Of a stretch of 64,000 bases of DNA, positions 32,170 through 49,148 are shown one piece after another. The DNA is from Treponema sp. (GTDB taxonomy: Bacteria > Spirochaetota > Spirochaetia > Treponematales > Breznakiellaceae). How positions within the stretch are numbered: position 1 is the first letter of the stretch; every line of letters begins with the position of its first letter. A program made the translations under genes and the position numbers. The DNA lies in the NCBI GenBank assembly GCA_031266175.1, contig JAISBN010000139.1, positions 762 through 64,761 on the forward strand, written 5' to 3'. The notes under the pieces were generated by a model that was given only the letters and a program-made list of their open reading frames with translations, was not told the origin of the DNA and did no database searches.

Positions 32170-32970
32170 GTGAAGCGGTTTATCATAGCGGTTGCGATTC
32201 TGTACGGAGTACAGGCGCTTTGGGGGCAGTCTCCCCTGATCAATTTGGCCGGGCCGGAAAACGCGGCGCGTCTTGGGCAGGGGGAAAAGCTGATCCGCCT
32301 TCAGCAGAAAGCCCCTGTTCCGTTCCTGGTTCCCCGGGATCCCTACATTAAAGGCATGGTGGAACGGATACTCCGGGAGCTGGACCCCGGGTTTTTTGTG
32401 GAGACCCTCAGGATCTACCGTAAACCCGCCGTTAACCCCGCAAGTCCCCGGTGGACAGCGGGGGAAAGGACCGGCCTCTACAACCAGATCCTGGCCCTGA
32501 GCACCCTGGCGGGGCTGCAGTACTATTCGGCCAGCCGGGAAAAAATGCGGGTATTCTACGAAACCTCCGCAGTGGTAAGCGGCCCCGACGGCAAGACCAC
32601 CCGGCCGGATCCGGTGTACGCTAATCCCCCGGCGGAACTAACGATCTATGCCCGGCAGAAGGATCTGTCCTTCGGGGATAACATTTACCGCTACGACTAT
32701 TATGCCCGGCCCGATTCTCTTGTCTTTGTCCAGGAAAACATAACATCCATGAGTTACGGCATTATCCCCGCGGTGGGTAAAAACAAGCTCCGTTCCGTGG
32801 TGGTGGTCTGCGATGCCGGCGACTGCCTTCTTATTTATGCCGCGTCCATGGCAAAGGCCGCGTCGATACCCGGTCTGAGCGACAGGATCAGCGCATCCTT
32901 TACCAACAGGGCCGAAGCGGTCCTGGACTGGTTTAACCAGCAGGCGGACAAGGTTTTTACCCGGCCATGA
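32170..32970 (+). CDS. Hypothetical secreted protein
   Basis: Start placed at the GTG at 32170, 4 nt after GGAGG. Signal-like MKRFIIAVAILYGVQALWGQS. No family recognised. Confidence 0.5.
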   Translation: MKRFIIAVAILYGVQALWGQSPLINLAGPENAARLGQGEKLIRLQQKAPVPFLVPRDPYIKGMVERILRELDPGFFVETLRIYRKPAVNPASPRWTAGERTGLYNQILALSTLAGLQYYSASREKMRVFYETSAVVSGPDGKTTRPDPVYANPPAELTIYARQKDLSFGDNIYRYDYYARPDSLVFVQENITSMSYGIIPAVGKNKLRSVVVVCDAGDCLLIYAASMAKAASIPGLSDRISASFTNRAEAVLDWFNQQADKVFTRP

Positions 32971-32987
32971 ATTCCTCCGGCAGCGGA

Positions 32988-34661
32988 TTAGCCATCGCCT
33001 TGATACTCGATCTCGCCGAGACAGTTGTAACCCCTAGTTTCGCGCCAGATGCCCTTGTTGGCAAAGTGCACGGAATACTCCGGCAGGCCGCGCAGGTTCT
33101 CATAGTAGTCCGGAAGCCACAGCGCAACCGTGTACTTGCCCGCTTTCATATCCGCGGGAAGCGTTATCGAAGCATCTAAGCTGTTTTCGCCGCTCCGCCA
33201 TGTGCGGGCATCCACGTCTGTCAGCTCGATGTCGCAGCGGTTAACGCCGTTGTCGAAGACCACAAATACCGGACGGACCCTGACGATGCCCGCGTAGCCG
33301 TCGTTGTAAATTACTGCCCTGATGTTGAAAGTATCCCCGCTCCGTGCGGTGCTTGTAAACTCCGCGGTATCAAGGCGAAGCCTATAGCCGAGTTTGCGGT
33401 CAAGACGGGTGTAGGCTCTTTCGGCGGGATCGCTGCCGGATGCGCGGAGCCTGATACCTTTCCAGAACTTAAGATGCTTGATATGCCAGCTGCGGTTTAT
33501 CATAGTCAGCTTTCTTGCCGCGGCTTCACCAAGCGCCAGTTTCGCGCCCGCGTCAATCACCTTTGTATTGGCCAAGGGATCGTTCCTGCCAAAGTCGAGA
33601 TCGCCATCAGGGTACCAGGTCGTCTCGCCGCACTGCATAACATCGCCGCCGTATGATGTTTCGAGCTGAGCCGCAAACGCCGCCACATCTTTGACCTGGT
33701 CGTATTCTTTGTGATCATCCCAATATGGGTAGAATGTTTCCTTCCAGCCGCCGCCGCGGGTATAGCTTAACACAAACGACGCGAACGAGTCGTCGTGCAG
33801 ACCCAGACGGTCAAGCTGTGCCTGTGTCAGCGCGGCCGCGCCCTGCGGAGGGTTCTTTGCCAGCGCCTTTATCTCCATAAGGAATTCGGCGTAGCGAATA
33901 ACGACAGGTATGGTATCCGGCGTGCGGTCGAGCAATCGCTTGATAAGCCGGTAACGCAGCGCGCCCTGCGCCGGAGAGTCTATATCTGTCGTTGGCACGC
34001 CGTTTGCGTATTCGGGACGATCTTCGCGTTTATAGGATTTGTTATCTGCCATAACATACTCGTCGTCATTATGCCACTCTCCCCAGGGGCCGAGGATCCC
34101 GGCGGACAAAGCCTCCACAATGTCGGCATTTTCGGTAATAAGCCCTCCGATTTGCTCAATATGCCGCAAATAGTTCTGCTCGACCACCATCGGTGTCCAG
34201 GCGTCCGCATATACCATGCGGAGGATGATTTTCATCCCGGCTTCCCGTACAACCCGCAATGCTTTGGAGAGTTCAGCTACAAAGGACCGCGGCAGTTCGG
34301 GCGAGTTAATGTATTCAGTAAGGTATATGTTTCCATCCAGTACCGTGACTCCGTCCCTGCGCAACGCGCGCAGCAGCTCAAGGTAAGCGCCGCCAAAACG
34401 CCAGGAATCATATTCCGGATCGGCAAGCCACTCCGCGTAATCCTCATCGAAATCCCGAGGATGAAGATAGTCAAAGCCGGTGAAGTTCTCAAAATATCCC
34501 CTCCCCGGATTGGCTATGACGCTGGTGAAATCCGGCGTATAGGCGAATGTCCGCGTCGAGGCTGCCGGACCCTCGGCGGCCGTCACTGGCGGGAACAGCG
34601 CGGCAGCCGCAAACAAGAGCGCCGCGGCGAATCCATTAAATCTGTCCACTAAATTTCCCAT
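32988..34661 (-). CDS. Secreted glycoside-hydrolase-like protein (DUF4874/DUF4832-like TIM barrel plus beta-sandwich)
   Basis: Start moved to the ATG at 34661 (GGAGGA SD). Signal-like FAAALLFAAAALFPPVTAAEG. GILGPWGEWH motif as in GH42-like/DUF4832 proteins. Confidence 0.55.
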   Translation of the reverse strand: MGNLVDRFNGFAAALLFAAAALFPPVTAAEGPAASTRTFAYTPDFTSVIANPGRGYFENFTGFDYLHPRDFDEDYAEWLADPEYDSWRFGGAYLELLRALRRDGVTVLDGNIYLTEYINSPELPRSFVAELSKALRVVREAGMKIILRMVYADAWTPMVVEQNYLRHIEQIGGLITENADIVEALSAGILGPWGEWHNDDEYVMADNKSYKREDRPEYANGVPTTDIDSPAQGALRYRLIKRLLDRTPDTIPVVIRYAEFLMEIKALAKNPPQGAAALTQAQLDRLGLHDDSFASFVLSYTRGGGWKETFYPYWDDHKEYDQVKDVAAFAAQLETSYGGDVMQCGETTWYPDGDLDFGRNDPLANTKVIDAGAKLALGEAAARKLTMINRSWHIKHLKFWKGIRLRASGSDPAERAYTRLDRKLGYRLRLDTAEFTSTARSGDTFNIRAVIYNDGYAGIVRVRPVFVVFDNGVNRCDIELTDVDARTWRSGENSLDASITLPADMKAGKYTVALWLPDYYENLRGLPEYSVHFANKGIWRETRGYNCLGEIEYQGDG

Positions 34662-34739
34662 TCCTCCTTCAATTATTATCGTACATATGGCGTTACGCAA
34701 ACAAAAAAGAAAGATTAACCGGTTTTTTGGGGGAGGAAG

Positions 34740-34811
34740 ATGAAAATATTGCCATCCTGGAGGCTGGTATTCTACTACCCCGTTACTACCGTATTGGCCG
34801 TTACTTTTTAG
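34740..34811 (+). CDS. Candidate 23-codon sORF (MKILPSWRLVFYYPVTTVLAVTF)
   Basis: Own reading. GGAGG lies 3 nt before the ATG. Hydrophobic peptide. A strong + strand terminator follows about 30 nt downstream. Speculative. Confidence 0.25.
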   Translation: MKILPSWRLVFYYPVTTVLAVTF

Positions 34812-34842
34812 TCCATTCACTCCATTCACTCCATTCGCGTCA

Positions 34843-34878
34843 AAGCCGCGGGGAAACCTGCGGCTTTTTTCGTTTTTT
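34843..34878 (+). terminator. Strong intrinsic terminator with no annotated upstream gene
   Basis: AAGCCGCGGG-GAAA-CCTGCGGCTT stem (GNRA loop) followed by TTTTTTCGTTTTTT. Confidence 0.65.
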
Positions 34879-34921
34879 ATATGACATTTGTCATGTTTTG
34901 GAGGAATTTTTCCTTTTTTTG

Positions 34922-34949
34922 TTGACTTTTTTTCAGAGATCAGTATGCT
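34922..34949 (+). promoter_or_regulatory. Sigma70-like promoter TTGACT-N16-TATGCT upstream of the giant gene
   Basis: -35 at 34922-34927, -10 at 34944-34949. About 70-nt leader. AGAGG SD 6 nt before the ATG at 35025. Confidence 0.45.
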
Positions 34950-35024
34950 TTTTGTGAAGGCACCATCTGCGTGGGAAAGGAAGTCCGCGGGCGCGGACAG
35001 CATCAAGTGTAACAGAGGCCTCCC

Positions 35025-38000
35025 ATGGCTGCCAAATCTTTCTCCTTCTTCCTTTCGGGAATCATCCTGTGTTTATGTTCCGTAACCCTCTTTGCCCAGA
35101 CCAGGCCGGAACTCCGGGGTTTTGACGAACGGGTCTTCCAGTATCATTTTGACCGGGCCGACCGGGAACTGGATCCCGCCTCGTGGATCCGCGAAGCCCG
35201 GCTGGGGATCGGCCTGGCCCGGGCCGGCTGGGAAAGGACCGCCCTGGAAGTATACGCCGACCCTGAACTGCGGGCCGCGGCGCTGGAAGAAGTGGAACGC
35301 TGGTCGGAAGCGGAACTGGAACAGCGGTACGCCCGGTGGCTCTTTAAGCGCTTTTTCGGCGGAGCCTCCGGCGATACGGCAAAAACGCTGGACGCCGCCC
35401 TGGACGAGGCCAACCGCCGCTATGCCTACCATACCGATGACGAAGGCAATATCCTCTACGGCGAAACCGGCGATCCCGAAGCGGTACGTCCCTTTGAGGG
35501 ACGCAGCGTTGAAGAGGACCGGCAGCTGTGGCGCGGCCATGTTTCCGGAACGGAAGCGGCGGAACTGCAGCGCCACAGCCTTTCTTTCTCGTCGGCCTTC
35601 CCCGAATTATTGTCGTTTATCGGGGAAGAAAACCGGGAAAGTTTTGAAAAACAGTTCCGGGAATTTTCCGCCGCTTCGCTGTTACAAAAAAAGGCGGAAT
35701 TTGAAGCCCTGCTGGACCGGGAAGAGCGGCTCTTTATCGCCCGCCGGACCGGCGATGTCTGGAGCCTTCGCAAGCAGAGCGAAAACGAAAAAGCGTCGGT
35801 GATCAGCTCCCAGCTGATTGCCGGCGCCCAGGCCGTCTGCGCCGAGGGAATCTCCGCCCTGGAAGAACGGATAGAAACGGCCCGGGCGGGGACCGGGGAT
35901 CTTTCCTTGGCGGGAGCGGAATGGCTCAGCGCGTTTGAAGAACAGTTTGACCGGGGACTCAAGGCCTGGTCCGGGGCGGAGGAACGGTTTATCATCCGCC
36001 GGATGGAATGGGAACGGGACAGCGGCGAACATTTTCTTGAGGGGGAAGAAGCGTGGAAGACCGCTTTTTCGGAACTGGAAAGGGAACGGCTTGCCTGGGA
36101 AGAACAGGCCAGAGAACTTTTTAACAGCGGGGAACAGCTCTTTGCCGCGGTTTCCCAACAGCTGGAGTCCGCCATCGCCGAAGCCAGGGAAGAATTCCTC
36201 CGGGATGCCGCCCTCCGTACCTACAACGGCGCGGAAAGAGCGGGCGCGTGGGTAGACATGTATGTTACCGGGAATGCGGTTATGGCGGAAGCCCGGGACA
36301 GCGTTGAGTTTTGGCTTTCCCGCTTTGTCAGCGGTTCCCCCGCGGGCGGCATGGAAAACGGCACGCTCGCCGCGTGGGTACAGCAGATTGTCAACCGGGG
36401 CGGAATTACCACCTACCGGGAAGCAAAAGTAAAGATCCTTGGCCGGACAATGGAAAACCGGATAGAGCAGTTTATACCCCTGACCGAAATGCAGAAAATC
36501 GCGGGCCGGGAACTGCTCCGCTGGTCCGCCCTGTATACCCAGTACCGGAACAAATCCGGCGAAGCCCTGGCGGTTCTAGAACAGGAATTCGGCGTGGCCC
36601 TGGGCATGGACCGGGGAGCCCTGACAGCGGTCCTCGGTTCGGACAGCGAATCGTTTTTCCTGGATGAATACCAGGTTGAATTACTGCGGGCAAAGGCAAT
36701 TGCCGGGTACTGGGAACAGCGGCTGGATATTGCCCAGGCCGTTTCCTCCTATGCGGAAGAATTAACCGCGGGCCGCATGACCGAAGAAGAAAGCCTTCTG
36801 CAGTGGAGGGATTCCAAGTCGCGGTATGACACCGCGGTTACGGCCTATGAGGAAGCCCAGAACCGCCTGAAAGACGCCGGATCCGGTCTTGAGACGGTCC
36901 GGGCCGAACTGCAAGACGCCGCGGCGGAACTGGCCGCGGCGGAAAGATCCCTGGAGGAACTGAATAACCGCTACGCGGATCAAATGGCGGCCTACCAGGT
37001 TAATTCCGGTGATTTTATCCTTGAGGAATTAGGCGCTTATTATGCATCCCTGGTCCGGCTGACGGAAAACCGCCTTACCGATGATGCCTATTACACGTCG
37101 TACCTCCGGGCCGAACAGCAGTACGCGGATGCTTATATCCTGCGGGATGCCTGGGCGGCGCTCAAAAGTATTATCGAAACCGCAAGCGAAGCAGAAACCG
37201 AAGCAGAAGCGGAAACCGGTGATGAAGCTGAGACCGAATCCGATACCGGCGAGGAAACGATAAACGAAGCGGCAAGGGAAACCCGGCAGCTGCAGCTGGC
37301 TTTTTTAAGCGCCCCTTCGGCCGCGGACTGGTATTTTGCCGCGGCCGGCAGGGAAGGAACGGAAGCGGAAAAAAAGGCCCTGGAAGAAGAAGGGCTCCTT
37401 AACCGGCTCAAGCGCGAAGCCCTGGAAGAAGCCGTCCCGGGAAACGCCGGGCGGCTGCTGGCCGTTTACCGGGATTTGTCTCCCTATTCGCCCGCGGCCC
37501 AGCGGGAAGCGGCGGACTATGCCCGGCGCGCGCTGGGAATGATATTTGCGGAATTCGGCATCGAAAGCGCCGGGGAGGAATTACCGCCCATGGCGTTGAT
37601 AGGCGACGCCCTGTACCAGTACGAAACGGACAGCGATATGATTCCCGCGGCCGCGCTTGCATCCTTCCTCATACGGATCGATGAAGAAACGGAAGTTCTG
37701 CCCATACTGCTTGAAGCGGAACTTGGAGCGTGGAAAGAGTCGCTCATTGCCTATATGGCGGCAAAGACATTGTACCTGGGAATCGAAATTCCCGAACTGG
37801 CCGGCAACATACTGGATGAATATGAGCAGTTTATTGCCGACGCGCTTGACCGGATGAACGGCGGTGAGCTGTCGCAGGAACTGGCCCGGCAGGGGGCTTT
37901 TTATCAGTACCTGATTGATTTTCTTGTGTCCTGCGAGGATTTAAAAACCGCCGTACGCTCCGGGGGAGATGAAGGCAGGGAACACTGGCGGACCTATATC

Positions 38001-41000
38001 AGCGCCCCCGTCTTTAATCCCTACAGTATCAACAGTAAAGAAACCCTCTCCGCCGCGGAAGCCGGAGATCCGGAAGCGGAACTCCCCGGCGTCTCAGGCA
38101 TCAGGGGCGCTTTGTCCCGGGAGGAAGGGCTGCTGGCCGACGCCTTCGAGGCGGCGGAAGAATCCCGGCGGGTTTTGACGGAAGCCTTCGGCATGTTTTA
38201 TGAAAGCGGCATGTCCCCGGAACAACGGGACTTTCTTTTGGCTGCGGAAAGGTACATGGCCGATCCGGACCTTGGCTGGACGGATCTTCCGGATAACGGT
38301 AATTACGCCGCGGCGCTGGAATTATTCCAGAAAGAGTCAATAGCGTTTCAGAACAGGTTTTTGTACGAGGAAACCATCAAGCAGCAGATAGCGCAGCTCG
38401 GTTTTGAATATACGATCCTTCCTCCGGGAGGACAGGAAGCGCTTGACGCGCTCAAGGACATTTCCGGGGAACTGGAAGCAGCCCGCCTGGTCCACCAGAA
38501 CATGCTTGAGCGGTATAATGCCGGAGCGGCCCGGTATATTGCCGAGGGAAACAATTATGAATCCCTCTACGGTCTGGTAAAAGATCGTTTTACCGCCATG
38601 GAACAGGCCGGGAATGAATATGAAAAACAGGATGCGATAAGGCGCTGGGCAAGTACGGCATACCTGCGTCAGACCGCCGAATTGCCCGAAGCGGCAGTAT
38701 ACTATAAAGAGCCGGAAGAAGAGTTGGAATATGCCGCCGGCAGGAACCGGCGGGCGCAGATTGCCCTGTCCGCACTACAGGATCTCTATAGCGGCGGGGA
38801 GTCCAAAAGACCGTATGCGGATGAAGAGTACAACAGCCTGTACCGGGAATATCAGGAAAGTTTTTCCAGAATGTTTTTAACGTTCAAGGCGAAAATGGAA
38901 TTTACCGCCGGCCTTGAGGCGGAACAGATAAAGAACAGAGAATTGTATCTTTCCGCCCATGACGCCATGTCGTCATTTGTTAATCAGAATATGTATAGCT
39001 GCTATGACGAATACAATCCGCCCGCCGTTACGGACAGTTCTCTCCTGGATTTTATACACATCACCGGATCCGGGGATCTGGGGCTTTCATTTGATCCCGG
39101 GTCATTTGTATTGCACCAAACAACACCGGAAGAGGCTCTTGAATTGTCCGGGTATTTTCAAACCAAAGGATTTACCGGAGACGGGGAAAGCCAAATGTCC
39201 GCCTTCGAAACGGCTCTGAAAAAATGGGTTGCCAGAATGGCCGGTTATAATCTTCAGGATATGAATGTATACCAAACCTGGGGCCTGGCCCTGGATTATC
39301 TAACCAGACGGCTTAAGGAAAGCAACCCGTCCATCGGCAGTACCCGGTCGATCTACGAGCTTACCAATATGGGCGCGGACGGAACTATTGAACTTGACGG
39401 GGATTCTCTGAACAAACTGCTCGACCGATACCGGAATAACAGGCTGCCGGGTATTCAGCAGAACGCATGGAACAGCCTGAGCGCCCAGCAGCGCGCCGAT
39501 CTGGGATTTTTGGCGGCCCTGCTTCTTACCGGAAGGGGAGGGGAAGGGGCCGCGGGACTCACGCAGGTTTCGGAATACCTGGAAATGGACGAGATCTATG
39601 GCGAAGCCGATTATTACAAGATTACGAAAAAACTGTTGTTCATACGGATAACCGTATACCGCTGGCCCTACACCTTTGATCACAGCGGATTAAATCAGGT
39701 GTTTAACGCTTCCAAAAACAGGCAGACCGCATTTTATAATTCCATTAATGCCAATAAATCGCTCTTTTCATCCGGGGTTTCAAAAGCCCTTTCGGAAATA
39801 ACGGCCTATGAAAAATCCTGCGGAAGACTTGCCGTTTTAACCAAACAGAAAGAGGACGGCATAACCTGGGACGATATAGAACCGGCGCTGATGCTTCTGG
39901 AAAACATCGATACAAACGAAATAAAGAAACTGGAAACCCACTGGTATGAGATGCGGGAAGATCGCGGCGCTGTTATCTATACGGATATTGCGGGGGCTTT
40001 GGGCAGTTTATACGCGTGGGGAGAAGGACTCAGAAACGATGCGGAGCGGGACTTTGAGAACGCCTATCTTGCCGGAGAGGAAATCAGACAGGACAAGCAG
40101 GCTGAGTACAGGGATGCCCTGGAAGCGTACATTGACGGAACAGGCTCTCTGGCGGATTTGAATAGCGCCGCCCGGGAGGCCTACGGAGATAAAGCGGCGG
40201 CGTTAAAAAATCATCTGGGAAATACGGGAGCGGCGCTTATTGCCGACTTAAAATCAATCAATGCCGAACGGCCTGAATATACGGAACAGTACCGGAATTT
40301 GGCCGGACAGTATACCGGATTGATAGACCGTGTCTATGACGCCCGGTTTAACGCCGAATTGGCCGCCAGGGAAACGGAATGGCAGGAACAGCAAAAGGAT
40401 TTGCGGGAAAAACTCGCATCCTGGCATGAGGCGGCGGGGCTTATCCTGGAACGGGGAAGGCAGGACTGGAAAGACGGTTTTGAATCCATGCAGGCGGCGT
40501 ATGCAAAATGGGAGCGGGATTTTTCCGAACAGTATGCCATTGTTGATGCGGCCTGGAATGCCGCTTACCTGGAAAGCCTTACGAATAAGGAACAATGGAT
40601 CAATCAGGCTGTCGTTTCCGCCAATGAAGCCCTTGATAATACCCTTCTGAGTTTTGTCGCTTCCGATGCGGAAGCCTATGCCCGAAGGCTGGATTCTTTT
40701 ATACCCTCGGCGCTTCCCGGATACGGAACCGTGGAAGAAGCCGCGTCAATCCTGCAGGCGGTTCTTGGCAGGGCGGGAATTACCGGCCTTGCCGGCGCGT
40801 TTACCGCCATGGCAGGCAGCGCCGGTACGGTTATGACCCAGGTTAGGACCGGAACTTCCGGGCTTGGACTCTGGAATTCGGGTCAGGCCCACGCGGCGGC
40901 AAAGGAGCTTGCCTGGAACAGTACCAGTGAAATGGCGGACGGCAGGATGGCAATCCTTGGATTTCAGGCCAAAGAGTCGGTCTTGGAAGCAAAAAAAATT

Positions 41001-43928
41001 CTGGAAGAAAATATAGCCCGGAGCAATACCGGTTTTGACGGCAGCATGGACGATCTGTATACGATGGACGGAGGCTGGAGACGGACCGGCAGCAGATATA
41101 ACAAGGATATTATTGTCCATTCAACATTTTTTAAAAGCGCCATTACCGACAAGGTTGTGATTGATGCCTATAGATGGTTTGTCATGGATTATTGGGAATT
41201 GAATACCGATTTGAGCGAGGGAAATTTAAACGGCCTGAATTACAGGGGAATACAAGCGCTTGTAGCCATGGCGCAGAAGGAAATTCAGGAAAAAAGCGAT
41301 GAGGTATTCGGCGCTGACGGTACGGAGGGGGCTTTTACCGCCTGGATCGGCAGCCCTGCCGTTATGACCAACGGAGGAATAACAGATAACGGCAGCGGCG
41401 AGCTTGGCCGCCTGCTGCGTGAATTTTACAAATGGGAGCAGAAGCAGGGCGAGGGTATAGCGGCGATGAATGCGCCCCTCTGGGATAAACCTCTCTGGGA
41501 TTCCCGGGGTTCGTGGTTCAGCGCGCCAAGCCTTCGCAGCGCGGTTGACATGGTCAATACAATTGCCGCCACGGTAGTTTCCGCGGTCCTGGCTCCGGTT
41601 ACCGCCGGCGGCAGTTTTGCCCTTGGGATTGCCATCAATTTAACGGATGATCTATTGTTTAACAGTTTGGATGTCGCCTACGGATATAAGAGCTGGTCTG
41701 AAGCGGGATTTGATTTTGGGAAAAAAGCCCTCGTGACAACGGTAACAAGCGTGGCGGGAGCGGCTGTAAAAGTAGGGTCCGCCACTGCGGGAATAGGAGG
41801 CGTTATTTCAACAACCGTCAAAACGGCAGTAAAAACCTTTAGCACAAGTACCATAACCAGCGCCATAAATGCGGTTACCTACAATAACGGCAAATTCGGC
41901 TGGTCAAAAGACGATTTTAGAGGGGGTCTCTGGAACGGTCTCATAAATGCCGCCGTCGCGGGGGCCGGGACCTTTACTACCGGCTCGCTCAACCTTGGGC
42001 TTGAAGGATTTTACGGCAAGTACTATGCTGATGGGACAAAACTATCGTCCCTGGCCGGAGGTTTGGCGGCTCAGGGCGTGAATTATGCCCTGGGCGGTGA
42101 CTTTACGTTGAATGCTTTCAACATTGGGCTTTTAGCCAAAAATGACGCTGTGGACCTTGGAATGCTGGAACTGCATTTTGGACATGATGGTTTTAGTGCC
42201 GGCCTTGGGTCGGGCGGTGCGGATGTCAGTCTGGAATCCATTATTGGGGCAGCAAGAGGTTTGGAGGCATGGAAAGCGAATTTTGACATCTGGGGTTCTG
42301 ATTCTGCGGATGCGAAAAAATACATAAGCCAGATGAGGACGCTGTATTCGGGCGGGAATGGCAGTGAAAATAGAGAATTGTACGATTCGATGCTGGCGGG
42401 AACAACCATGGTTTATGAAAACCGAAACGCCGATCACACCCAAACGGTTTATGATCCCGTGTCCGGTTATAAATTGATACTGCTGGGAAACGATGCCCTT
42501 GATGATGGAAGCCGCTTTGGCCTTAATGTGGTGTTCAGTCATGAATCCTATCGAAACGGCCTGGATGACGGCGTTGAAGGACAGAGGATGGAAACAGACA
42601 GGGCGATCTTTGGGCATATCAGTACCGCCTTGGGATTAATGGGAAGTTACGGGGAAAATGCTGTCGGCTCCGAAGTTCGGGAACGGGCTCTTAAATTCGC
42701 TGAAAACTATAATATTTTTCTATCTGATCTTAGTACTGTAGAAGATCATAATGCGGCAGTTGGAAATTTACTCAATGTCTTTGATGAATTTGATTCGGGT
42801 AAAGATTATTGGCGGTTGGTAAAAAAAGAAGGTGGATCCTATGGTTTGCTTAATGATGGAAACCACAGCCTGCTCGATGAAAAAGGTAAGGTGATTGTTA
42901 AAAGCACTCTTGATATTTTTGACAGATCGGGAAATATTATTGGTCATCATTATGATGATCCCGATTCATATCTTAGATCCCTTGGTATGCTGTTGGGGAT
43001 ATATCCCGATTTCAATCAGGGGACGGATAAGGCGCAGCTGTTAAAAGAATACCGGCTTTTTACCGCAAATACCTATTTTGATAATATTTATTTGGGAACA
43101 GTCAAATCGGTAAAACAAAATAATGGCATCATAAATGTTAATCCGTATCTTATGACGTACAAAGAGATAGTTAATGGTAAAGGGTATATGATAGCCGCCT
43201 ACGGTTCTTATAACCAGATTGCTCTTTCAATTTTCGATGAATATAATGAAGTGAGAGGACATGTGATCTTTAACAACAAACCGGGAGAACGGGATTATGC
43301 GATGATCGAAAATATGATACCCGAGGGTAAAAGGTTAAAAGCAGGGACAATTTCATTCGAAACAGTTGGTTTTTACGCTAATGTAAAAATGTTTGGCTTG
43401 GGTTCGACTTTACCAGATCCCACAAAAATGGGGGCCGGTCATCCTGCTGTTCTTGATGGTACTTATCGTTACGCGTGGTCGCTTCACGCCGTCGCTTCTC
43501 AAGATCCTTATAGGGCTTTCCGGTTGTTTAGTGGAAGGCCTGATTCCTGGGACTCTGTTACCGGGCCAAAACCCGCGATTAATAGTGGTATTGGTATTGT
43601 GGAAGATTTTCCATATAGTAACGGAATATTTGATAACTGGTCGGGGGACTTGCGGAAGTTTAATGGATATTACTATAAGAATGGAAACAGAGCGATGACG
43701 ACTACGGACGCTATTAATGGACATAGGGCGTATTCAAATCCATATGAGTTGAAAACCAATGGCTATACGGCCGGAAGCCTCGGATGCCAGGTTTGGATAC
43801 CCACGACCTTTTATCAGCTTTCCAGCGGATTAAGGACAACTATGGAATCCCAGGCCTGGGGTAATTTTATTATCAACAGGTGGATTTTAGGTGACGGGAC
43901 AGGGAACAAAAATAATTGGAGTTGGTAA
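35025..43928 (+). CDS. Giant (2,967 aa) secreted modular protein: signal peptide, long Glu/Ala/Arg/Leu-rich helical body, Gly/Ala/Thr-rich hydrophobic module, AT-rich C-terminal YkuD/Tlde1-like candidate toxin domain
   Basis: Single uninterrupted ORF. N-terminus MAAKSFSFFLSGIILCLCSVTLFAQT. C-terminal INGH-x17-SLGCQV motif. All six-frame competitors are short. No family recognised for the first ~2,700 aa. Confidence 0.85.
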   Translation: MAAKSFSFFLSGIILCLCSVTLFAQTRPELRGFDERVFQYHFDRADRELDPASWIREARLGIGLARAGWERTALEVYADPELRAAALEEVERWSEAELEQRYARWLFKRFFGGASGDTAKTLDAALDEANRRYAYHTDDEGNILYGETGDPEAVRPFEGRSVEEDRQLWRGHVSGTEAAELQRHSLSFSSAFPELLSFIGEENRESFEKQFREFSAASLLQKKAEFEALLDREERLFIARRTGDVWSLRKQSENEKASVISSQLIAGAQAVCAEGISALEERIETARAGTGDLSLAGAEWLSAFEEQFDRGLKAWSGAEERFIIRRMEWERDSGEHFLEGEEAWKTAFSELERERLAWEEQARELFNSGEQLFAAVSQQLESAIAEAREEFLRDAALRTYNGAERAGAWVDMYVTGNAVMAEARDSVEFWLSRFVSGSPAGGMENGTLAAWVQQIVNRGGITTYREAKVKILGRTMENRIEQFIPLTEMQKIAGRELLRWSALYTQYRNKSGEALAVLEQEFGVALGMDRGALTAVLGSDSESFFLDEYQVELLRAKAIAGYWEQRLDIAQAVSSYAEELTAGRMTEEESLLQWRDSKSRYDTAVTAYEEAQNRLKDAGSGLETVRAELQDAAAELAAAERSLEELNNRYADQMAAYQVNSGDFILEELGAYYASLVRLTENRLTDDAYYTSYLRAEQQYADAYILRDAWAALKSIIETASEAETEAEAETGDEAETESDTGEETINEAARETRQLQLAFLSAPSAADWYFAAAGREGTEAEKKALEEEGLLNRLKREALEEAVPGNAGRLLAVYRDLSPYSPAAQREAADYARRALGMIFAEFGIESAGEELPPMALIGDALYQYETDSDMIPAAALASFLIRIDEETEVLPILLEAELGAWKESLIAYMAAKTLYLGIEIPELAGNILDEYEQFIADALDRMNGGELSQELARQGAFYQYLIDFLVSCEDLKTAVRSGGDEGREHWRTYISAPVFNPYSINSKETLSAAEAGDPEAELPGVSGIRGALSREEGLLADAFEAAEESRRVLTEAFGMFYESGMSPEQRDFLLAAERYMADPDLGWTDLPDNGNYAAALELFQKESIAFQNRFLYEETIKQQIAQLGFEYTILPPGGQEALDALKDISGELEAARLVHQNMLERYNAGAARYIAEGNNYESLYGLVKDRFTAMEQAGNEYEKQDAIRRWASTAYLRQTAELPEAAVYYKEPEEELEYAAGRNRRAQIALSALQDLYSGGESKRPYADEEYNSLYREYQESFSRMFLTFKAKMEFTAGLEAEQIKNRELYLSAHDAMSSFVNQNMYSCYDEYNPPAVTDSSLLDFIHITGSGDLGLSFDPGSFVLHQTTPEEALELSGYFQTKGFTGDGESQMSAFETALKKWVARMAGYNLQDMNVYQTWGLALDYLTRRLKESNPSIGSTRSIYELTNMGADGTIELDGDSLNKLLDRYRNNRLPGIQQNAWNSLSAQQRADLGFLAALLLTGRGGEGAAGLTQVSEYLEMDEIYGEADYYKITKKLLFIRITVYRWPYTFDHSGLNQVFNASKNRQTAFYNSINANKSLFSSGVSKALSEITAYEKSCGRLAVLTKQKEDGITWDDIEPALMLLENIDTNEIKKLETHWYEMREDRGAVIYTDIAGALGSLYAWGEGLRNDAERDFENAYLAGEEIRQDKQAEYRDALEAYIDGTGSLADLNSAAREAYGDKAAALKNHLGNTGAALIADLKSINAERPEYTEQYRNLAGQYTGLIDRVYDARFNAELAARETEWQEQQKDLREKLASWHEAAGLILERGRQDWKDGFESMQAAYAKWERDFSEQYAIVDAAWNAAYLESLTNKEQWINQAVVSANEALDNTLLSFVASDAEAYARRLDSFIPSALPGYGTVEEAASILQAVLGRAGITGLAGAFTAMAGSAGTVMTQVRTGTSGLGLWNSGQAHAAAKELAWNSTSEMADGRMAILGFQAKESVLEAKKILEENIARSNTGFDGSMDDLYTMDGGWRRTGSRYNKDIIVHSTFFKSAITDKVVIDAYRWFVMDYWELNTDLSEGNLNGLNYRGIQALVAMAQKEIQEKSDEVFGADGTEGAFTAWIGSPAVMTNGGITDNGSGELGRLLREFYKWEQKQGEGIAAMNAPLWDKPLWDSRGSWFSAPSLRSAVDMVNTIAATVVSAVLAPVTAGGSFALGIAINLTDDLLFNSLDVAYGYKSWSEAGFDFGKKALVTTVTSVAGAAVKVGSATAGIGGVISTTVKTAVKTFSTSTITSAINAVTYNNGKFGWSKDDFRGGLWNGLINAAVAGAGTFTTGSLNLGLEGFYGKYYADGTKLSSLAGGLAAQGVNYALGGDFTLNAFNIGLLAKNDAVDLGMLELHFGHDGFSAGLGSGGADVSLESIIGAARGLEAWKANFDIWGSDSADAKKYISQMRTLYSGGNGSENRELYDSMLAGTTMVYENRNADHTQTVYDPVSGYKLILLGNDALDDGSRFGLNVVFSHESYRNGLDDGVEGQRMETDRAIFGHISTALGLMGSYGENAVGSEVRERALKFAENYNIFLSDLSTVEDHNAAVGNLLNVFDEFDSGKDYWRLVKKEGGSYGLLNDGNHSLLDEKGKVIVKSTLDIFDRSGNIIGHHYDDPDSYLRSLGMLLGIYPDFNQGTDKAQLLKEYRLFTANTYFDNIYLGTVKSVKQNNGIINVNPYLMTYKEIVNGKGYMIAAYGSYNQIALSIFDEYNEVRGHVIFNNKPGERDYAMIENMIPEGKRLKAGTISFETVGFYANVKMFGLGSTLPDPTKMGAGHPAVLDGTYRYAWSLHAVASQDPYRAFRLFSGRPDSWDSVTGPKPAINSGIGIVEDFPYSNGIFDNWSGDLRKFNGYYYKNGNRAMTTTDAINGHRAYSNPYELKTNGYTAGSLGCQVWIPTTFYQLSSGLRTTMESQAWGNFIINRWILGDGTGNKNNWSW

Positions 43929-43929
43929 A

Positions 43930-45255
43930 ATGATAAACGCTATCTGGCTTAAGGGCATTGTAATATTGGTTTTCACGGTTACTTTATCCTCCTGCACCGC
44001 TAAAAACGAAATGCCGGAGGATAATACAAGTGAAAGGTCTGTGGAAATTGAAAAGCAAATTCCGGCTCAAAATAAAAACTCCTCCGGTTTGGCATCTTTG
44101 AGCGTTGAAACTGATAAGGCCGATAATGAGTCTGATGATGACGGAGATTATGAGGTTATTCTAAAAATGCAGGGCCTGGAATTAAGGGATTTTACGGCAA
44201 ACGGACGTAATAATCTTTCCGCCCAACAGGGGACAAGCTATCTGTTTAAGTATTTAAAGAATATGCGGCAGGATGTTCACGATATGTTTTTATTAACTGA
44301 TAGTAAGGTTCAACGTATGTTTAATTCACATTTATGGTATGGCCGGTCTGTACCGGGCGTAAAAGAACCGGTACACTTCATTGAATATCAGGAAAACCTG
44401 CTGCAATTTAAGGAAAGAAATGAAGTAATACCGGTCGGAGAAATGACCCTTGATAAATGGGATGCCATCCTCGGGGGAATAATTACGGAATTTACAAACG
44501 GAAAAATAGCGATATACAATCCAATATCTGTCAGAGCGGGGGATGGGGTCATTTTCTATATACCATATTATATTAAAGCAGAAGATGCTGCAAGGTGTTT
44601 GTTTTTGCGGGTTAGGGATGGTAAGATTGTTGATAAAAAATATCTTGATCATAGCTTTGATTTTGCCATTTATGATTTGGGCTTCTTTTATTCAAGTTTA
44701 TATGACAAGGATTATTCCTTTGGAGAATGGCATGTGGATGATTTTAAAAATATAATTGTTATTCAGGATATGAATCATAACATGCTGACATTTGATTATA
44801 AATCATTGATCAGTACTAAATGTGACGTTTTTACCCATGTTGTTGTTTTACCCTTTGTTCAAAATGGGAAGATGGGATTTTCTCTTTTAATTGGGTATCC
44901 AATGATATTTTTGTACATACCCAATAAGGGTGAAATTTTTCCTAAAAATAGTGGTATGGCTCTATATAAAACATATATTGCGGATTTTGCAAATAACGAA
45001 CTCCTTTTGCTGGAAGAAGGTTGTTTTAATTTTTTGGCGACTGAAAATTTTGTTAAAAATTTTGTGTTAAATAATCTTGATAGAGATTACTACAACCTGG
45101 CGTTTTTGCCGGAAGGATTTTCTGATACGATTCAGTCGGATGAATTTGTGGAAGAAGCAATAACCGAACGTAATGTGGAGTTAAACTTAATAGAGGCAAG
45201 GAGAAATTTGTATGACGAATCTTTGTTGCAGAGGTTGATAGATATAGATAAATAG
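43930..45255 (+). CDS. AT-rich lipoprotein of unknown family, coupled to the giant gene (candidate immunity/accessory protein)
   Basis: Start moved to the ATG at 43930, 1 nt after the giant gene's TAA. Lipobox TVTLSSC. 441 aa with no recognisable domain. Confidence 0.7.
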   Translation: MINAIWLKGIVILVFTVTLSSCTAKNEMPEDNTSERSVEIEKQIPAQNKNSSGLASLSVETDKADNESDDDGDYEVILKMQGLELRDFTANGRNNLSAQQGTSYLFKYLKNMRQDVHDMFLLTDSKVQRMFNSHLWYGRSVPGVKEPVHFIEYQENLLQFKERNEVIPVGEMTLDKWDAILGGIITEFTNGKIAIYNPISVRAGDGVIFYIPYYIKAEDAARCLFLRVRDGKIVDKKYLDHSFDFAIYDLGFFYSSLYDKDYSFGEWHVDDFKNIIVIQDMNHNMLTFDYKSLISTKCDVFTHVVVLPFVQNGKMGFSLLIGYPMIFLYIPNKGEIFPKNSGMALYKTYIADFANNELLLLEEGCFNFLATENFVKNFVLNNLDRDYYNLAFLPEGFSDTIQSDEFVEEAITERNVELNLIEARRNLYDESLLQRLIDIDK

Positions 45256-45327
45256 CAGCTTAATACAAACCGGGGCAGATACGTGAATAACAGTTAAAAT
45301 CCAGGGAAGTTATTTATGATCACGATA

Positions 45328-45963
45328 TTATTCATTTTTAGTATTTGAAACGTAAAGTACATCCTTCAGATTAAACCGGAATTCAAACTCTTCCAGGGCT
45401 TGACCGAAACCGAAAAAAAGGGGATAGGTTACGATCCCCTGGCCGGGAAGGGGAGCTCCGCAGATGACGGTTTTCTGGATAAAAACAGGGGTATTTTTCC
45501 GGATGTTTATTTTTGCCCTGGCCGCGGCTTCCTGTTCTTCAAAGGTCCGGGCGTTGTAAATGACGGTGTATGAATCGTATGCCCCGGAAGCGTTCTGCCA
45601 ATAAAGCTCACCGTTTATGGTAAAATTTTGGTACTGCTTAATGGAAGGGGGGCTGTTTTCCCCGGAAGGATAGATCACAAAATAAAAGGCCAGTCCGTCC
45701 GGATAGGTATAGGTTTGTTTCCCGTCAAAGATAAAATTTTGCCGTTCAACCAGGGCAAGTACGGTGGTGGACATTTTCCCCCTTCTGGTAATGGGAATTC
45801 TGGAGACCGGGGTTAAAGGTTTTGTTGCCTTGTCTGAGAGCGGGACGCCGGTACAGGAAAAAACAAGGAGTAGCAGCAGAAAACCGTAAGGAAAGAGCCG
45901 CCTGAATTTACCTCGGGCTAGGCGGGTATGGGCGAAAGATTCTTTCCGGTAGTTGACCGTCAT
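45328..45963 (-). CDS. Hypothetical lipoprotein
   Basis: ATG at 45963. LLLLLVFSC lipobox. No family recognised. Confidence 0.5.
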   Translation of the reverse strand: MTVNYRKESFAHTRLARGKFRRLFPYGFLLLLLVFSCTGVPLSDKATKPLTPVSRIPITRRGKMSTTVLALVERQNFIFDGKQTYTYPDGLAFYFVIYPSGENSPPSIKQYQNFTINGELYWQNASGAYDSYTVIYNARTFEEQEAAARAKINIRKNTPVFIQKTVICGAPLPGQGIVTYPLFFGFGQALEEFEFRFNLKDVLYVSNTKNE

Positions 45964-46071: not shown

Positions 46072-47010
46072 CTATCCGGCAGCTTCGTTCCAGTGGCCGA
46101 TGGTACGGATTTTCTGACTGCGGTAACGGACCAGAATTTCCGGCCGCCGGGCGCAGAGATCGTCCAGGTCCCGGATAAGCGTATCCTTAATGGCCCGGGC
46201 GACGGCGCCGGGATCGGCATGGGCGCCTTCTTCGGGTTCGGGAATGATCCCATTAATTACCTTAAAGTCCAGCAAGTCGCCGCTGGTAATTCGGAGCATG
46301 GCGGCGGCGTCTTTTGCCCTGGACGCGTCGCGGAGAAGTATGGACGCGCAGCCTTCGGGGCTGATAACGGAATAGATGGCATTTTCCAGCATATAAATTT
46401 TATCCCCCACGCAAAGGCCCAGGGCGCCGCCGGAGCCGCCTTCCCCGATAATGATACAGATTACCGGAGTAAGGAGGCGGCTGAAACACATCAGGTTCCG
46501 GGCAATGGCTTCGCCTATGCCCCGTTCCTCCGCTCCCAGTCCGGGGTACGCGCCGGCGGTATCTACCAGGGTAACGATGGGCCGGTGAAACTTTTCCGCT
46601 TCCCTGGCCAGCCGCAGGGCTTTGCGGTACCCTTCAGGATTGGCCATGCCGTGGTTGCGGCGCACGTTTTCTTTCAGGGTGCGGCCCTTCTGGTTTGCCA
46701 GCACCGTTACAGGCCGGCCTTCCAAAAAACAGATGCCCCCCACAATCGAAGGATCGTCCCCAAAGGTCCGGTCACCGTGGAGTTCGATAAAGTTGTCAAA
46801 AATCCGGGTGATATAATCCATCGCGTAGGGCCGGTCGGGATGCCGGGCAAGTTCCACCTGTTTCCACACCGTTTCGGCCCGCGACTGGGACCGGAGCTTT
46901 AGCTCCAGCCGGGAAATTTCATCCGCCGCATCCAGTCCCGTTTCCTCGATCAGTTTTTTTAATTCCCCAAGCTTTGATTCAAGCCGGTTTCCGTCCGGGG
47001 TATTATTCAT
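46072..47010 (-). CDS. accA: Acetyl-CoA carboxylase carboxyltransferase alpha subunit
   Basis: Start moved to the ATG at 47010 (MNNTPDG...). RPYAMDYI, GRPVTVLANQKG, VTLVDTAGAYPG. Confidence 0.9.
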   Translation of the reverse strand: MNNTPDGNRLESKLGELKKLIEETGLDAADEISRLELKLRSQSRAETVWKQVELARHPDRPYAMDYITRIFDNFIELHGDRTFGDDPSIVGGICFLEGRPVTVLANQKGRTLKENVRRNHGMANPEGYRKALRLAREAEKFHRPIVTLVDTAGAYPGLGAEERGIGEAIARNLMCFSRLLTPVICIIIGEGGSGGALGLCVGDKIYMLENAIYSVISPEGCASILLRDASRAKDAAAMLRITSGDLLDFKVINGIIPEPEEGAHADPGAVARAIKDTLIRDLDDLCARRPEILVRYRSQKIRTIGHWNEAAG

Positions 47011-47806
47011 GATTGCTCCTGTGCAGGTCGATAAGGGCGGAGATGATCCGCCGCTGATCCCGGCGGTGGACGATGGTGTCCACGAAGCCCTTTTCCAGCT
47101 GGAACTCGGAACGCTGAAATCCTTCGGGAAGGCTTTGCCGTATCGTTCCTTCAATAACCCGGGGACCCGCAAAACCGATAAGGGCGCCGGGCTCCGCCAT
47201 GATCACATCGGCCAGCATGGCGAAGGATGCCGTCACTCCGCCGGTGGTGGGATCGCAGAGGACGATAAAGAAGGGGACTCCCGCCTTGTCCAGCTCCGCG
47301 GCGGCGCTGGCGGTTTTTGCCATCTGCATAAGGGAGAAGATCCCCTCCTGCATCCGGGCGCCGCCGGAAGTGGTATAGATCAGCACGGGAAGTTTTTTTT
47401 CCGCCCCCTTGATTAGGGCCCGGCCGACTTTTTCACCCACCACCGATCCCATGGAGCCGCCCATGAACCTGAAGGACATAATTCCCAGGATGACGGGCTT
47501 TCCTTCAATGGTGCAGTCGCCGGTAAGCACCGCGTCCTTCATCCGGGTTTTGGCTTCCGCCTCGGAAAGTTTTTCTTCGTAGCCCGAAAGATCAATGGGA
47601 TTAAGGGAGCGGAGGTTCGCGGAAAATTCAACGAAGCTTCCCTCATCCGCAAGGTATGCTATCCGTTCCACGGGCTCCATCCGGTAGTGATAACCGCATC
47701 CGGGACAGGTGTTAAGCGATGCCTTTACCGTCGCTTCGTCGCGGGGTTTTCCGCATCCGGGACAGGTTTTTCCGGTCTGCCCGCCGTCTTCACTGGACAT
47801 GTTCAA
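47003..47806 (-). CDS. accD: Acetyl-CoA carboxylase carboxyltransferase beta subunit
   Basis: Zinc ribbon CPGCG..CPGCGYHYRM, MGGSMGSVVGEK. Confidence 0.9.
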   Translation of the reverse strand: MNMSSEDGGQTGKTCPGCGKPRDEATVKASLNTCPGCGYHYRMEPVERIAYLADEGSFVEFSANLRSLNPIDLSGYEEKLSEAEAKTRMKDAVLTGDCTIEGKPVILGIMSFRFMGGSMGSVVGEKVGRALIKGAEKKLPVLIYTTSGGARMQEGIFSLMQMAKTASAAAELDKAGVPFFIVLCDPTTGGVTASFAMLADVIMAEPGALIGFAGPRVIEGTIRQSLPEGFQRSEFQLEKGFVDTIVHRRDQRRIISALIDLHRSNHE

Positions 47807-49148
47807 CTTCCTTCTCTATATTTTCGTACCAGGAGGTGCCGAAAACGCCGTAATGGAACACGGGGTGATTGATGATCCACCGCTGCCGTTCTTTATTGGT
47901 TGCGATTCCGTCAATTACCAGTTCCCGCAGGGCGCGGTCCATCCGGGCCAGCGCGTGGTTCCGGTCTGTTTCATGGACGATAAGTTTGGCCACCATCGAA
48001 TCGTAGTGGGGCGGAACGGAATACCCCGGATAGAGGAACGAATCGAACCGTACCCCCGGGCCTCCGGGTACTTCCAGCCGGGTTATTTTTCCCGGAGTCA
48101 GGGCATTGATCCTGCATTCCATCGCCCAGCCCGAAAGCGGCGGTTCCGCCGGGAAATCCGCCTCACCCGCCGCCGCGGCGTCCGCCTGTCCGGGAAGTTC
48201 CAGGCGGCCTTCGGTACAGGCAAGGATCTGCTGGCGTATAATATCGACGCCGCTTACAAACTCGCTTACCGGATGCTCTACCTGGACCCGGGCGTTTACT
48301 TCCATAAAATAAAATTTGCCCTCTTCCACAAGGAACTCGATGGTACCTGCGCCGCGGTACTTAAGCTCCCGGAAAAGCGGCACGGCCGCGGCGGTCATGG
48401 CCCGGCGCATGCCGGCGCTTACCGCGGGGGAGGGACTTTCTTCGATAAGTTTCTGATGATTTTTCTGAACCGTACAGTCCCGCTCGCCCAGAACGGCCGC
48501 ATTGCTGCCGTCGGCGATAATCTGCAGTTCCACGTGCCGGGGATTTTCCAGGTACTTTTCGATGAACACCGTACCGTCGGCAAAATTTTCCTCCGCCTCC
48601 CGGCTGGCAATGCTGATGTTGTCCCGCAGGTCTTCCGCCCTGCGGACGATCCGCATGCCTCTGCCGCCCCCGCCGGCGGCGGCCTTGATAATCACGGGAA
48701 AACCCAGGGCCTCCGCCGCCTGTATTGTTTCACCGCTGACCGCCCCGGTTCCCGGTGTTACCGGGAGGCCGTATTTTTGCGCGGTAGCCCTGGCCCGGAC
48801 CTTGTCGCCCAGGAGTTCTATCACCTCCGGATCGGGGCCGATAAAAAGAAGACCCTGGTCCCGGACCAGCCGGGCAAATTCCGGGTTTTCCGAAAGAAAG
48901 CCCACTCCGGGATGAACCGCCCCGCAGTCCGTATGGAGGGCCGCCATAATCAGGTTTTCCTTTACCAGGTAACTTTTTGCCGGGGGTGCCGGTCCTATGC
49001 AAACCGATCTGTCGGCAAGCCGCACATGGAGACTGTCCCTGTCGGCTTCGGAATAAACCGCGACGGTTTCGATTCCCATTTCCCGGCAGCTACGGATAAT
49101 GCGGACGGCAATTTCACCCCGGTTGGCGATTAAGAGACGCTTTATCAC
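47790..49148 (-). CDS. accC: Biotin carboxylase
   Basis: MIKRLLIANRGEIAVRIIR, GGGGRGMRIV, EMNARVQVEHPVSE. Confidence 0.93.
   Translation of the reverse strand: MIKRLLIANRGEIAVRIIRSCREMGIETVAVYSEADRDSLHVRLADRSVCIGPAPPAKSYLVKENLIMAALHTDCGAVHPGVGFLSENPEFARLVRDQGLLFIGPDPEVIELLGDKVRARATAQKYGLPVTPGTGAVSGETIQAAEALGFPVIIKAAAGGGGRGMRIVRRAEDLRDNISIASREAEENFADGTVFIEKYLENPRHVELQIIADGSNAAVLGERDCTVQKNHQKLIEESPSPAVSAGMRRAMTAAAVPLFRELKYRGAGTIEFLVEEGKFYFMEVNARVQVEHPVSEFVSGVDIIRQQILACTEGRLELPGQADAAAAGEADFPAEPPLSGWAMECRINALTPGKITRLEVPGGPGVRFDSFLYPGYSVPPHYDSMVAKLIVHETDRNHALARMDRALRELVIDGIATNKERQRWIINHPVFHYGVFGTSWYENIEKEVEHVQ

Follow-up and report, generated by a model that had tools for sequence, protein, structure and literature searches.

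A swappable C-terminal cassette with a conserved His/Cys site on a giant Treponema protein: a probable polymorphic toxin tip with an L,D-peptidase-like core

Polymorphic toxins ending in 'Tox-LD-peptidase' tips, which have the 1ZAT fold and conserved His, Ser and Cys residues, were described by Zhang et al. in 2012 (PMC3482391). Their carriers are of the Rhs or TcdB type and come from Actinobacteria, Bacteroidetes, Proteobacteria, Chloroflexi and Firmicutes, with none in spirochaetes, and their immunity proteins are Imm16 or Imm57 (PMC3482391). The Tlde1/Tae5 (DUF2778) type VI secretion system (T6SS) effectors, found in alpha-, beta- and gamma-proteobacteria, also depend on a His and a Cys for toxicity (bioRxiv 10.1101/2020.02.18.954545; PMC9638812, PDB 7UMA); in Tlde1a these are His121 and Cys131, 10 residues apart, and Rhs-DUF2778 fusions were reported in the Tlde1 paper. 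The DUF5675 domains of phage lysins form a sequence-orphan family that is 'C82-like' by structure (bioRxiv 10.64898/2026.04.11.717860). Here we compare with these systems the end of a giant open reading frame (ORF) in a 64,000-nt stretch of Treponema sp. DNA (GenBank assembly GCA_031266175.1, contig JAISBN010000139.1, positions 762 to 64,761; hereafter the window). A preliminary description of this DNA, made from the sequence alone, had noted a His...Ser-x-Gly-Cys motif near the C-terminus of the encoded protein and had likened it to YkuD-fold L,D-transpeptidases and to Tlde1.

We find that the C-terminus of the giant protein is a swappable cassette on a long constant carrier, and this conclusion is strongly supported. 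The cassette, which we call tip A (window positions 42,668-43,928), is in our judgement probably the exchangeable toxin tip of a spirochaete polymorphic toxin, with a core that would be a very divergent cysteine peptidase, most likely of a YkuD/MEROPS C82-like L,D-peptidase fold. The observations behind this reading are a conserved motif, a recombination breakpoint, displacement of the tip at a related locus, alternative tips that are peptidoglycan hydrolases and partner genes for secreted proteins.

The start of the cassette is defined by the syntenic locus of a close relative (L015), where a giant gene (2952 aa) is followed by accA, accD and accC. The L015 and window proteins share 82-98% amino acid identity up to residues ~2500-2547 and 12-27% afterwards, a fall from 0.94 to 0.12-0.27 at the tip. 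The DNA is ~89-95% identical until window position 42,667, where the encoded sequence passes from ...MGSYGENAVG to SEVRERAL..., and unrelated beyond. The GC profile falls at 42.6 kb, coincident with the breakpoint, and the GC content of third codon positions drops from 0.60 for the constant region to 0.38 for tip A, with 0.35 for the lipoprotein gene that follows it. At a further locus (L016), a 235-nt orphan remnant of tip A, 93% identical to window 43,694-43,928 and including both putative catalytic codons, lies downstream of an alternative tip and that tip's partner gene. This remnant encodes ...MTTTNAINGHRSYSNPYELKTNGYTAGSLGCQVWIPTTFYQLSSGLRTTMESQAWGNFIINRWILGD (...AINGH...GSLGC...NFIINR) and is still joined to a homologue of the lipoprotein gene; L015 retains ~50 nt of a tip-A remnant, and there too the lipoprotein gene has been kept. 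Both loci were reached through homologues of the downstream lipoprotein. Tip A and the lipoprotein gene behave as one unit, and by analogy with polymorphic toxin loci the remnant and the breakpoint together are the classic footprint of tip displacement.

L002 (2946 aa) and L003 (2932 aa), which are orthologous over the full length, show a uniform identity of ~60% to the window protein, tip included, from which it had appeared that the C-terminus is not a cassette; the far closer relative L015 overturned this view. Because of the L015 breakpoint and the displaced remnant, we draw the cassette wider than the 43,400-43,925 of the preliminary description, which had been right to see a C-terminal cassette on a giant carrier and whose interval covers the catalytic core. 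Within tip A, the DYW junction motif (42804-42812) comes first, then a linker, then the beta-rich subdomain and then the His/Cys core.

Exchange of C-terminal tips behind a constant N-terminal part is seen between close relatives not only for the window and L015 but also in a group of modules. Two of these, P0029 and P0030, found by profile search, have a ~220-aa N-terminal part that is near-identical to that of the tip-A module P0018 up to the residues DSSADYW, after which the three diverge. P0029 ends in a Peptidase_M23 domain (aa 397-501, 32 bits, above the gathering score) and P0030 in an Amidase_2 domain (aa 361-503, 67 bits). Orphan or displaced cassettes with paired partner genes occur at L016 and in two arrays. 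The first of these is a single contig (L004/L005) that carries P0018, P0029, an insertion sequence (IS) element and a larger gene, truncated at its 5' end, whose own end is weakly M23-like; after each module comes a small gene for a product with a signal peptide. In the second (L033), a 3272-aa main gene is split by an IS, and after it come three orphan modules (one with Amidase_2, an M23-like one of 600 aa and one with M23), each having a small exported partner. Every recognisable alternative tip is a peptidoglycan hydrolase and all of the partners are exported, which favours the periplasm as the place where the tips act, and the cell wall as their target. The peptidoglycan-directed, periplasm-acting role proposed in the preliminary description is thus backed indirectly, by the M23 and Amidase_2 tips, by partners with signal peptides or lipoprotein signals and by the YkuD-fold and lysin matches given below.

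This organization resembles that of CdiA-CT and Rhs-CT systems in having a sharp constant/variable junction near a short motif (DYW here, VENN in CdiA), displaced 3' remnants attached to an immunity gene (a candidate one here) and downstream arrays of orphan modules. It differs from them in that the carrier is unrelated, no two-partner secretion or T6SS gene is nearby and the recognisable tips are all cell-wall enzymes, not nucleases.

The C-terminus of the window protein reads ...AINGH(2900)RAYSNPYELKTNGYTAGSLGC(2921)QVWIPTTFYQL, and the motif, its quoted residues and the two codon positions (Table 1) are exactly as the preliminary description gave them. The motif is His-x17-Ser-x-Gly-Cys: Ser follows His after 17 intervening residues and Cys after 20. 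The giant protein has only seven Cys residues, and none other than C2921 lies beyond aa 1599, in the last 1,368 residues. By itself the motif is only mildly unusual, because a relaxed pattern, H-x(10-30)-[ST]-x-G-C, arose in 263 cases (1.3%) when the whole protein was shuffled 20,000 times; the figure for shuffles of the last 268 aa is 82 of 20,000. Conservation is a stronger argument for the His/Cys site than rarity.

Homologues were gathered by an indexed protein search, which gave two relatives, and by an exhaustive HMMER search of 1.84 billion representatives, which gave 26; a genome collection yielded the two loci L002 and L003 in Spirochaetaceae metagenome-assembled genomes, and a scan of metagenome contigs for further loci gave no confirmed relative. 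In an alignment of 23 sequences, 25-61% identical to the window protein, N2898 and H2900 are invariant (23/23), as are S2918 and C2921 (22/22). G2917 is kept in 21 of 22 sequences and G2920 in 20 of 22, with Ala in the other two. Upstream, the G-x-Y element that had been noted beforehand is conserved (G2812, 20/22; Y2814, 22/22), together with H2821 (21/21) and the accompanying hydrophobic FRLF segment, in which R2833 is present in 21 of 23; G2946 and R2952, in the terminal strand, are nearly invariant. Between His and Cys lies a variable loop, so that their spacing ranges over 18-29 in the family, and the same key residues are retained in P0019 (3130 aa) and P0021 (3461 aa), two giant but distant homologues. 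Loss of His2900 and Cys2921 among homologues had been named in advance as grounds for refuting the preliminary description, and neither residue is ever replaced in the alignment. An invariant His, Ser and Cys with a spacer of variable length is the pattern that would be expected of a catalytic dyad.

An AlphaFold model of the tip domain built from 20 sequences has a predicted local distance difference test score (pLDDT) of 81.8 and a predicted template modelling score of 0.83; a model built from three sequences (pLDDT 35) was discarded. When the model was compared with 350,542 PDB chains by Foldseek, YkuD-fold enzymes took ranks 1, 2, 3 and 13. These are the LD-carboxypeptidase Bd1075 (E 0.13, probability 0.60), LdtMt2 (twice) and Ldtfm, which have three different accessory architectures; what they have in common is the YkuD catalytic domain. 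In the BFVD library of viral structures the top matches have E-values of 2e-5 and 3e-3 with probability 1.0, and one is annotated as a phage 'Lysin'. In the model, His closes a strand and is followed by a loop, the Cys at the start of the next strand, a helix and a final strand. The order of these elements agrees with that of Bacillus subtilis YkuD (...YGIHGT-loop-SKGCIRM-helix-GTRVTINR in YkuD, ...AINGH-loop-SLGCQVW-helix-GNFIINR in tip A), and an insertion of ~60 aa separates the FRLF strand from the His strand. From the model, a YkuD/C82-like fold for the tip A core appears likely.

With the housekeeping YkuD-fold enzymes (B. subtilis YkuD, 1Y7M; LdtMt2; Ldtfm, 1ZAT/6FJ1; Csd6; and Bd1075, 7O21), tip A shares the order and setting of the catalytic residues and, in the model, the strand-loop-strand-helix-strand topology after His, but it has no significant sequence or profile similarity to them, its His-Cys spacer is longer, it carries the ~60-aa insertion, it lacks an Arg and its genetic context is toxin-like. 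Tlde1 offers a different set of likenesses to tip A as we read it: a His...(S/T)-x-G-C thiol enzyme without the canonical Arg after Cys, sometimes on large (Rhs) carriers, acting in the periplasm, neutralised by a Sec-exported immunity protein and equipped with an extra 'capping' insertion relative to housekeeping enzymes. We nevertheless reject membership of tip A in Tlde1/DUF2778, to which the preliminary description had likened the motif, because no match to PF10908 was found, the His-Cys spacing is 20 in the window (18-29 in the family) rather than 10, the 50 best PDB matches do not include 7UMA, the structure of Tlde1a, and the genetic context is not that of a T6SS. The DUF5675 lysins are a precedent for divergent YkuD (C82)-like lytic domains that are recognised structurally, and the tip A model for its part matches a phage 'Lysin'. 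They differ in that no tip-A member matches DUF5675, and the link of a second tip (tip B, described below) to that family lies below the cut-off; tblastn of tip A against phage sequences gave no match.

The gene that follows tip A encodes a 441-aa lipoprotein. The NCBI model of this gene (LBK74_10300) is 454 aa long and begins at a GTG at 43,891, overlapping the giant gene by 38 nt, and the ATG at 43,930 gives a cleaner lipoprotein signal peptide. Searches of Pfam, NCBIfam and PADLOC gave no family for it. Because the lipoprotein gene is adjacent to the tip, has a tip-like base composition, encodes an exported product and has been retained together with the tip remnant, a role as periplasmic immunity protein is plausible. 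At four other loci (L004, L010, L011 and L012), the proteins encoded behind tip A are secreted, homologous to one another and equipped with a PF25302 (F5/8 type C-like) domain at the C-terminus; partners of this type also stand after tip B in L015, L016 and L033. A third kind of partner, an unrelated 178-aa lipoprotein, is found at L001; lipoprotein signals are present in the partners of the window, L004 and L001.

From these observations we infer a working model for the fold, substrate, toxicity, immunity and delivery of tip A. A Sec-exported, mostly alpha-helical carrier of ~2,550 aa would present or release the tip, in whose last ~180 residues His2900 and Cys2921 would form the catalytic pair of a thiol L,D-peptidase-like enzyme. 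This enzyme would attack the peptide stems or cross-links of peptidoglycan in the periplasm of competitors, as an L,D-carboxypeptidase or an endopeptidase or, like Tlde1, by exchanging D-amino acids. The co-inherited lipoprotein (43,930-45,255) would protect the producer, most likely as a periplasmic immunity protein.

A number of results weigh against this model, and several of those that concern the enzyme count in favour of a rival reading, in which tip A would be a toxin tip built on some other His/Cys hydrolase (a protease, a deamidase or a transglutaminase-like or lipid-directed enzyme) with another target in the periplasm or envelope, neither YkuD-fold nor directed at peptidoglycan. Pfam, NCBIfam, PADLOC and PHROGs gave nothing relevant for the tip, the whole protein or 20 family members, and neither did searches of PDB sequences with family profiles; none of the 20 members matches PF03734 (YkuD) or PF13645 (YkuD_2) at E<=10. 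Profile-profile comparison, a kind of check proposed in the preliminary description, was negative too: hhalign gave a probability of <1% against each of three successively richer YkuD profiles, the first comprising Escherichia coli LdtB, LdtD, LdtE and DpaA, the second adding B. subtilis YkuD (identical to PDB 2mtz/3zqd) and 8da2 and the third adding nine YkuD domains from viral contigs. An alignment with His and Cys in register was obtained once and was not robust to a richer profile. The PDB fold matches are individually non-significant, none being below E 1e-3 (best E 0.13; 0.13-0.56 for the YkuD-fold proteins, with TM<=0.30), and the fold and identity of the BFVD matches could not be established. 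The canonical YkuD-type signature is HXX14-17-(S/T)HGCh with an Arg after the Cys (GC[IV]R); the window has GCQVW, so that the Arg is absent, and the residue before Gly-Cys is not His. The ~60-aa insertion is a further departure. E. coli DpaA is likewise without the Arg. The negative sequence result is a weak one because true YkuD-fold proteins barely detect each other by sequence (E 0.6-0.95 for YkuD versus LdtMt2). With YkuD-fold proteins of three accessory architectures at the head of the PDB ranking, the lysin match at probability 1.0 and peptidoglycan hydrolases as the only recognisable alternatives in the same slot, we regard a hydrolase of another kind as rather unlikely. The original comparison with YkuD-type L,D-transpeptidases accordingly stands in part: the motif is present and structure prediction places YkuD-fold enzymes first in the PDB, whereas a sequence or profile link is missing and the fold matches (E>=0.13) fall short of significance. 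That the motif arose by chance in a non-catalytic, structural C-terminal domain is very improbable. The relaxed pattern arises in ~1.3% of shuffles and no curated family backs a catalytic assignment, but across 22-23 homologues, some with as little as 25% identity, His, Ser and Cys never change although the adjacent loop differs in length and sequence, and the Cys is the only one in the last 1,368 residues.

The remaining difficulties concern the context of the tip. The lipoprotein of the window shows no relationship to the partners at other tip-A loci by BLASTP, hmmsearch or hhalign, and apart from the Sec signal peptide we found no recognised trafficking domain, repeat stalk (Rhs, FHA repeats, LXG, PAAR) or delivery machinery. 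In the orthologues L002 and L003, which occupy a syntenic chromosomal site and diverge from the window protein uniformly along their length, tip A has no adjacent, immunity-like partner and is followed by a terminator and then by ABC-transporter genes on the reverse strand. A protein that is no weapon, namely a giant periplasmic coiled-coil protein that remodels the cell's own wall, for instance to set helical shape, as do Csd6 in Helicobacter pylori and Bd1075 in Bdellovibrio, would fit these orthologues. It would fit as well with Bd1075, a curvature-determining LD-carboxypeptidase, being the best PDB match, and M23 peptidases and amidases also serve as housekeeping wall enzymes. Such a function does not sit easily with a tip that has been replaced between near-identical relatives with a displaced remnant left behind, with arrays of 5'-truncated orphan modules interspersed with IS elements and bearing one small secreted gene per module, or with the foreign base composition of tip and partner gene. 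Since replacement, arrays and foreign composition are hallmarks of polymorphic toxin and immunity loci and not of housekeeping enzymes, we consider own-wall remodelling improbable and favour an antagonistic toxin tip.

The preliminary description had supposed that a peptidoglycan-targeting domain on a giant carrier was a combination not yet described. In general this is wrong, since Tox-LD-peptidase tips (PMC3482391) and Rhs-DUF2778 fusions had already been reported. Tip A has much in common with the Tox-LD-peptidases: both stand at the C-terminus of a large carrier that is secreted, and both conserve His, Ser and Cys; they have linked partner or immunity genes, peptidoglycan peptide bonds as the predicted target and, in some cases, Sec-dependent export ('T2SS', type II secretion system, in the wording of PMC3482391). 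The differences are that the described domains are recognisably of the YkuD/1ZAT type whereas tip A matches no YkuD model, that the window carrier has neither Rhs nor any known repeat or trafficking domain, that the host is a spirochaete and that a novel lipoprotein or proteins of the PF25302 type serve as partners. Because LD-peptidase tips are already known, the novelty lies in the divergent domain family and in the giant Sec-dependent carrier of spirochaetes. What appears to be new is (i) a domain family that current models do not detect, (ii) a giant spirochaete carrier that lacks known trafficking and repeat domains and has a DYW-type junction, (iii) a tip repertoire made up only of wall hydrolases and (iv) partners of the PF25302 type.

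It is possible, though we put this forward tentatively, that these features define a polymorphic toxin system specific to spirochaetes. Its carrier would be a Sec-exported coiled-coil protein of ~2,500-3,400 aa with a hydrophobic/Gly-rich segment and an HExx[RH] block, without hallmarks of Rhs or of type V, type VI or type VII secretion systems. Behind a DYW junction it would deliver only cell-wall-hydrolase tips to neighbouring cells, tip A would be a new C82-like branch and PF25302 a new immunity family. To our knowledge, interbacterial antagonism in spirochaetes is almost unexplored, and the usual T6SS and contact-dependent inhibition machinery is lacking there. If the model is correct, the giant Sec-dependent carrier, with its exchangeable peptidoglycan-hydrolase tips, would serve a known strategy as a new delivery chassis, and tip A would add an L,D-peptidase-like branch that is invisible to current sequence models. 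For annotation, this would mean that thousands of 'hypothetical' tips may be cell-wall enzymes. Treponema has ornithine-type peptide stems, and the system would then also bear on the part that wall chemistry plays in toxin specificity and in self-immunity. The presence of tips A and B on the same carrier, as recorded by the displaced remnants, would offer a clean natural experiment on the specificity of toxin and immunity protein.

The carrier itself is long and biased toward alpha-helix, and a Pfam and NCBIfam scan of the entire 2967 aa found no domain. Its features are included in Table 1. Kyte-Doolittle (KD) hydropathy peaks at 2.26 in the signal-peptide region (aa 1-27), and by hydropathy and by composition per 300 aa the stretch at aa 2172-2206 is the only other strongly hydrophobic part of the carrier; with the Gly-rich part behind it, it is a candidate membrane-insertion or translocation element. 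The HESYRNG block is kept as HE[AS][YW]R[DN]G...H across all modules; its counterpart in P0019, a giant but distant homologue, is HEGTH and so has the true HExxH form. The block may represent a zincin-like peptidase, now degenerate, with a processing or releasing function.

Table 1. Features of the giant gene, its C-terminal cassette and the surrounding region, in window coordinates
Feature	Position	Strand	Remarks
Upstream neighbours	29,415-35,006		yidC, jag, DUF6675, DUF4832/DUF4874 protein; ordinary chromosomal genes
Giant ORF	35025-43928	+	2967 aa; constant carrier aa 1-2547, then variable C-terminal tip
Predicted N-terminal Sec-type signal peptide MAAKSFSFFLSGIILCLCSVTLFAQ	35025-35099	+	read from sequence
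Hydrophobic stretch, aa 2172-2206	41538-41642	+	KD >1.5; followed by a Gly/Ser/Thr/Ala-rich region (~250 aa)
HESYRNG motif, aa 2506-2512	42540-42560	+	last constant block, just 5' of the breakpoint
Recombining C-terminal cassette (tip A), aa ~2548-2967 (~420 aa)	42668-43928	+	breakpoint versus L015
Beta-rich N-terminal subdomain of the putative toxin module, aa 2700-2789 (NPYLMTY...MIENMIPEG...)	43122-43391	+	pLDDT 81-95; kept in family
Putative catalytic core, aa 2790-2967	43392-43925	+	conserved residues, AlphaFold secondary structure, Foldseek
G2812/Y2814	43458-43466	+	conserved
H2821	43485-43487	+	conserved
R2833	43521-43523	+	conserved
N2898	43716-43718	+	conserved
H2900	43722-43724	+	codon CAT
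S2918	43776-43778	+	conserved
C2921	43785-43787	+	codon TGC
Lipoprotein, 441 aa (signal peptide ...VTLSSC)	43930-45255	+	begins 1 nt after the giant-gene stop codon; candidate cognate immunity protein
Relic of a PF25302-type partner gene, 47 nt	45291-45337	+	blastn 85% identity to L015 9509-9555, inside PF25302 gene; tblastn hint
ORF, 213 aa	45,328-45,969	-	between lipoprotein gene and accA; no Pfam family
Element of ~70 nt	45358-45428	.	recurs at L016 2142-2211, upstream edge of the orphan unit of tip-A remnant and lipoprotein gene
Downstream neighbours	46,072-49,148		accA, accD, accC; ordinary chromosomal genes

Among the flanking genes of the window there are no secretion-system genes, with no Hcp, VgrG, PAAR or Rhs nearby or fused and no two-partner secretion. 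The L002 and L003 loci differ from the window in having an AcrB-family gene upstream of the giant gene. Between the lipoprotein gene and accA, the ~70-nt element overlaps a terminator-like hairpin on the minus strand (45440-45419), and called genes that correspond to the 213-aa ORF are present in L014 (211 aa) and L015 (208 aa).

Tip B, the second tip with a His and an S-x-G-C motif, is found at L015 (7,782-9,030), L016 (34-1,203) and L033 (4,372-7,524); it ends in ...RWL[EM]H...S-x-G-C... and is followed by a PF25302 partner. The L015 copy matches DUF5675 at E 0.003-0.005, below the Pfam cut-off, and the match is missing for the L016 copy. Tip B may be another C82-like toxin family. As a relative of phage DUF5675 lysins it was set aside, since tblastn gave a single phage ORF, orf48 of Tetrasphaera phage TJE1 (E 0.05), which has no Pfam family or relatives.

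Within the beta-rich subdomain of tip A, residues ~2722-2775 (~43,190-43,350) resemble tandem repeats present in 6-9 copies in three surface proteins of Firmicutes (P0020, P0022 and P0024; E 7.5e-11 to 1e-6), as in 'IENMIPEGKRLKAGTISF' versus 'LEQYVPEGYKMTVSGDF'. At L010, the tip-A module and the PF25302 partner that belongs to it are immediately followed by a BrnT/BrnA toxin-antitoxin pair (7,420-7,945).

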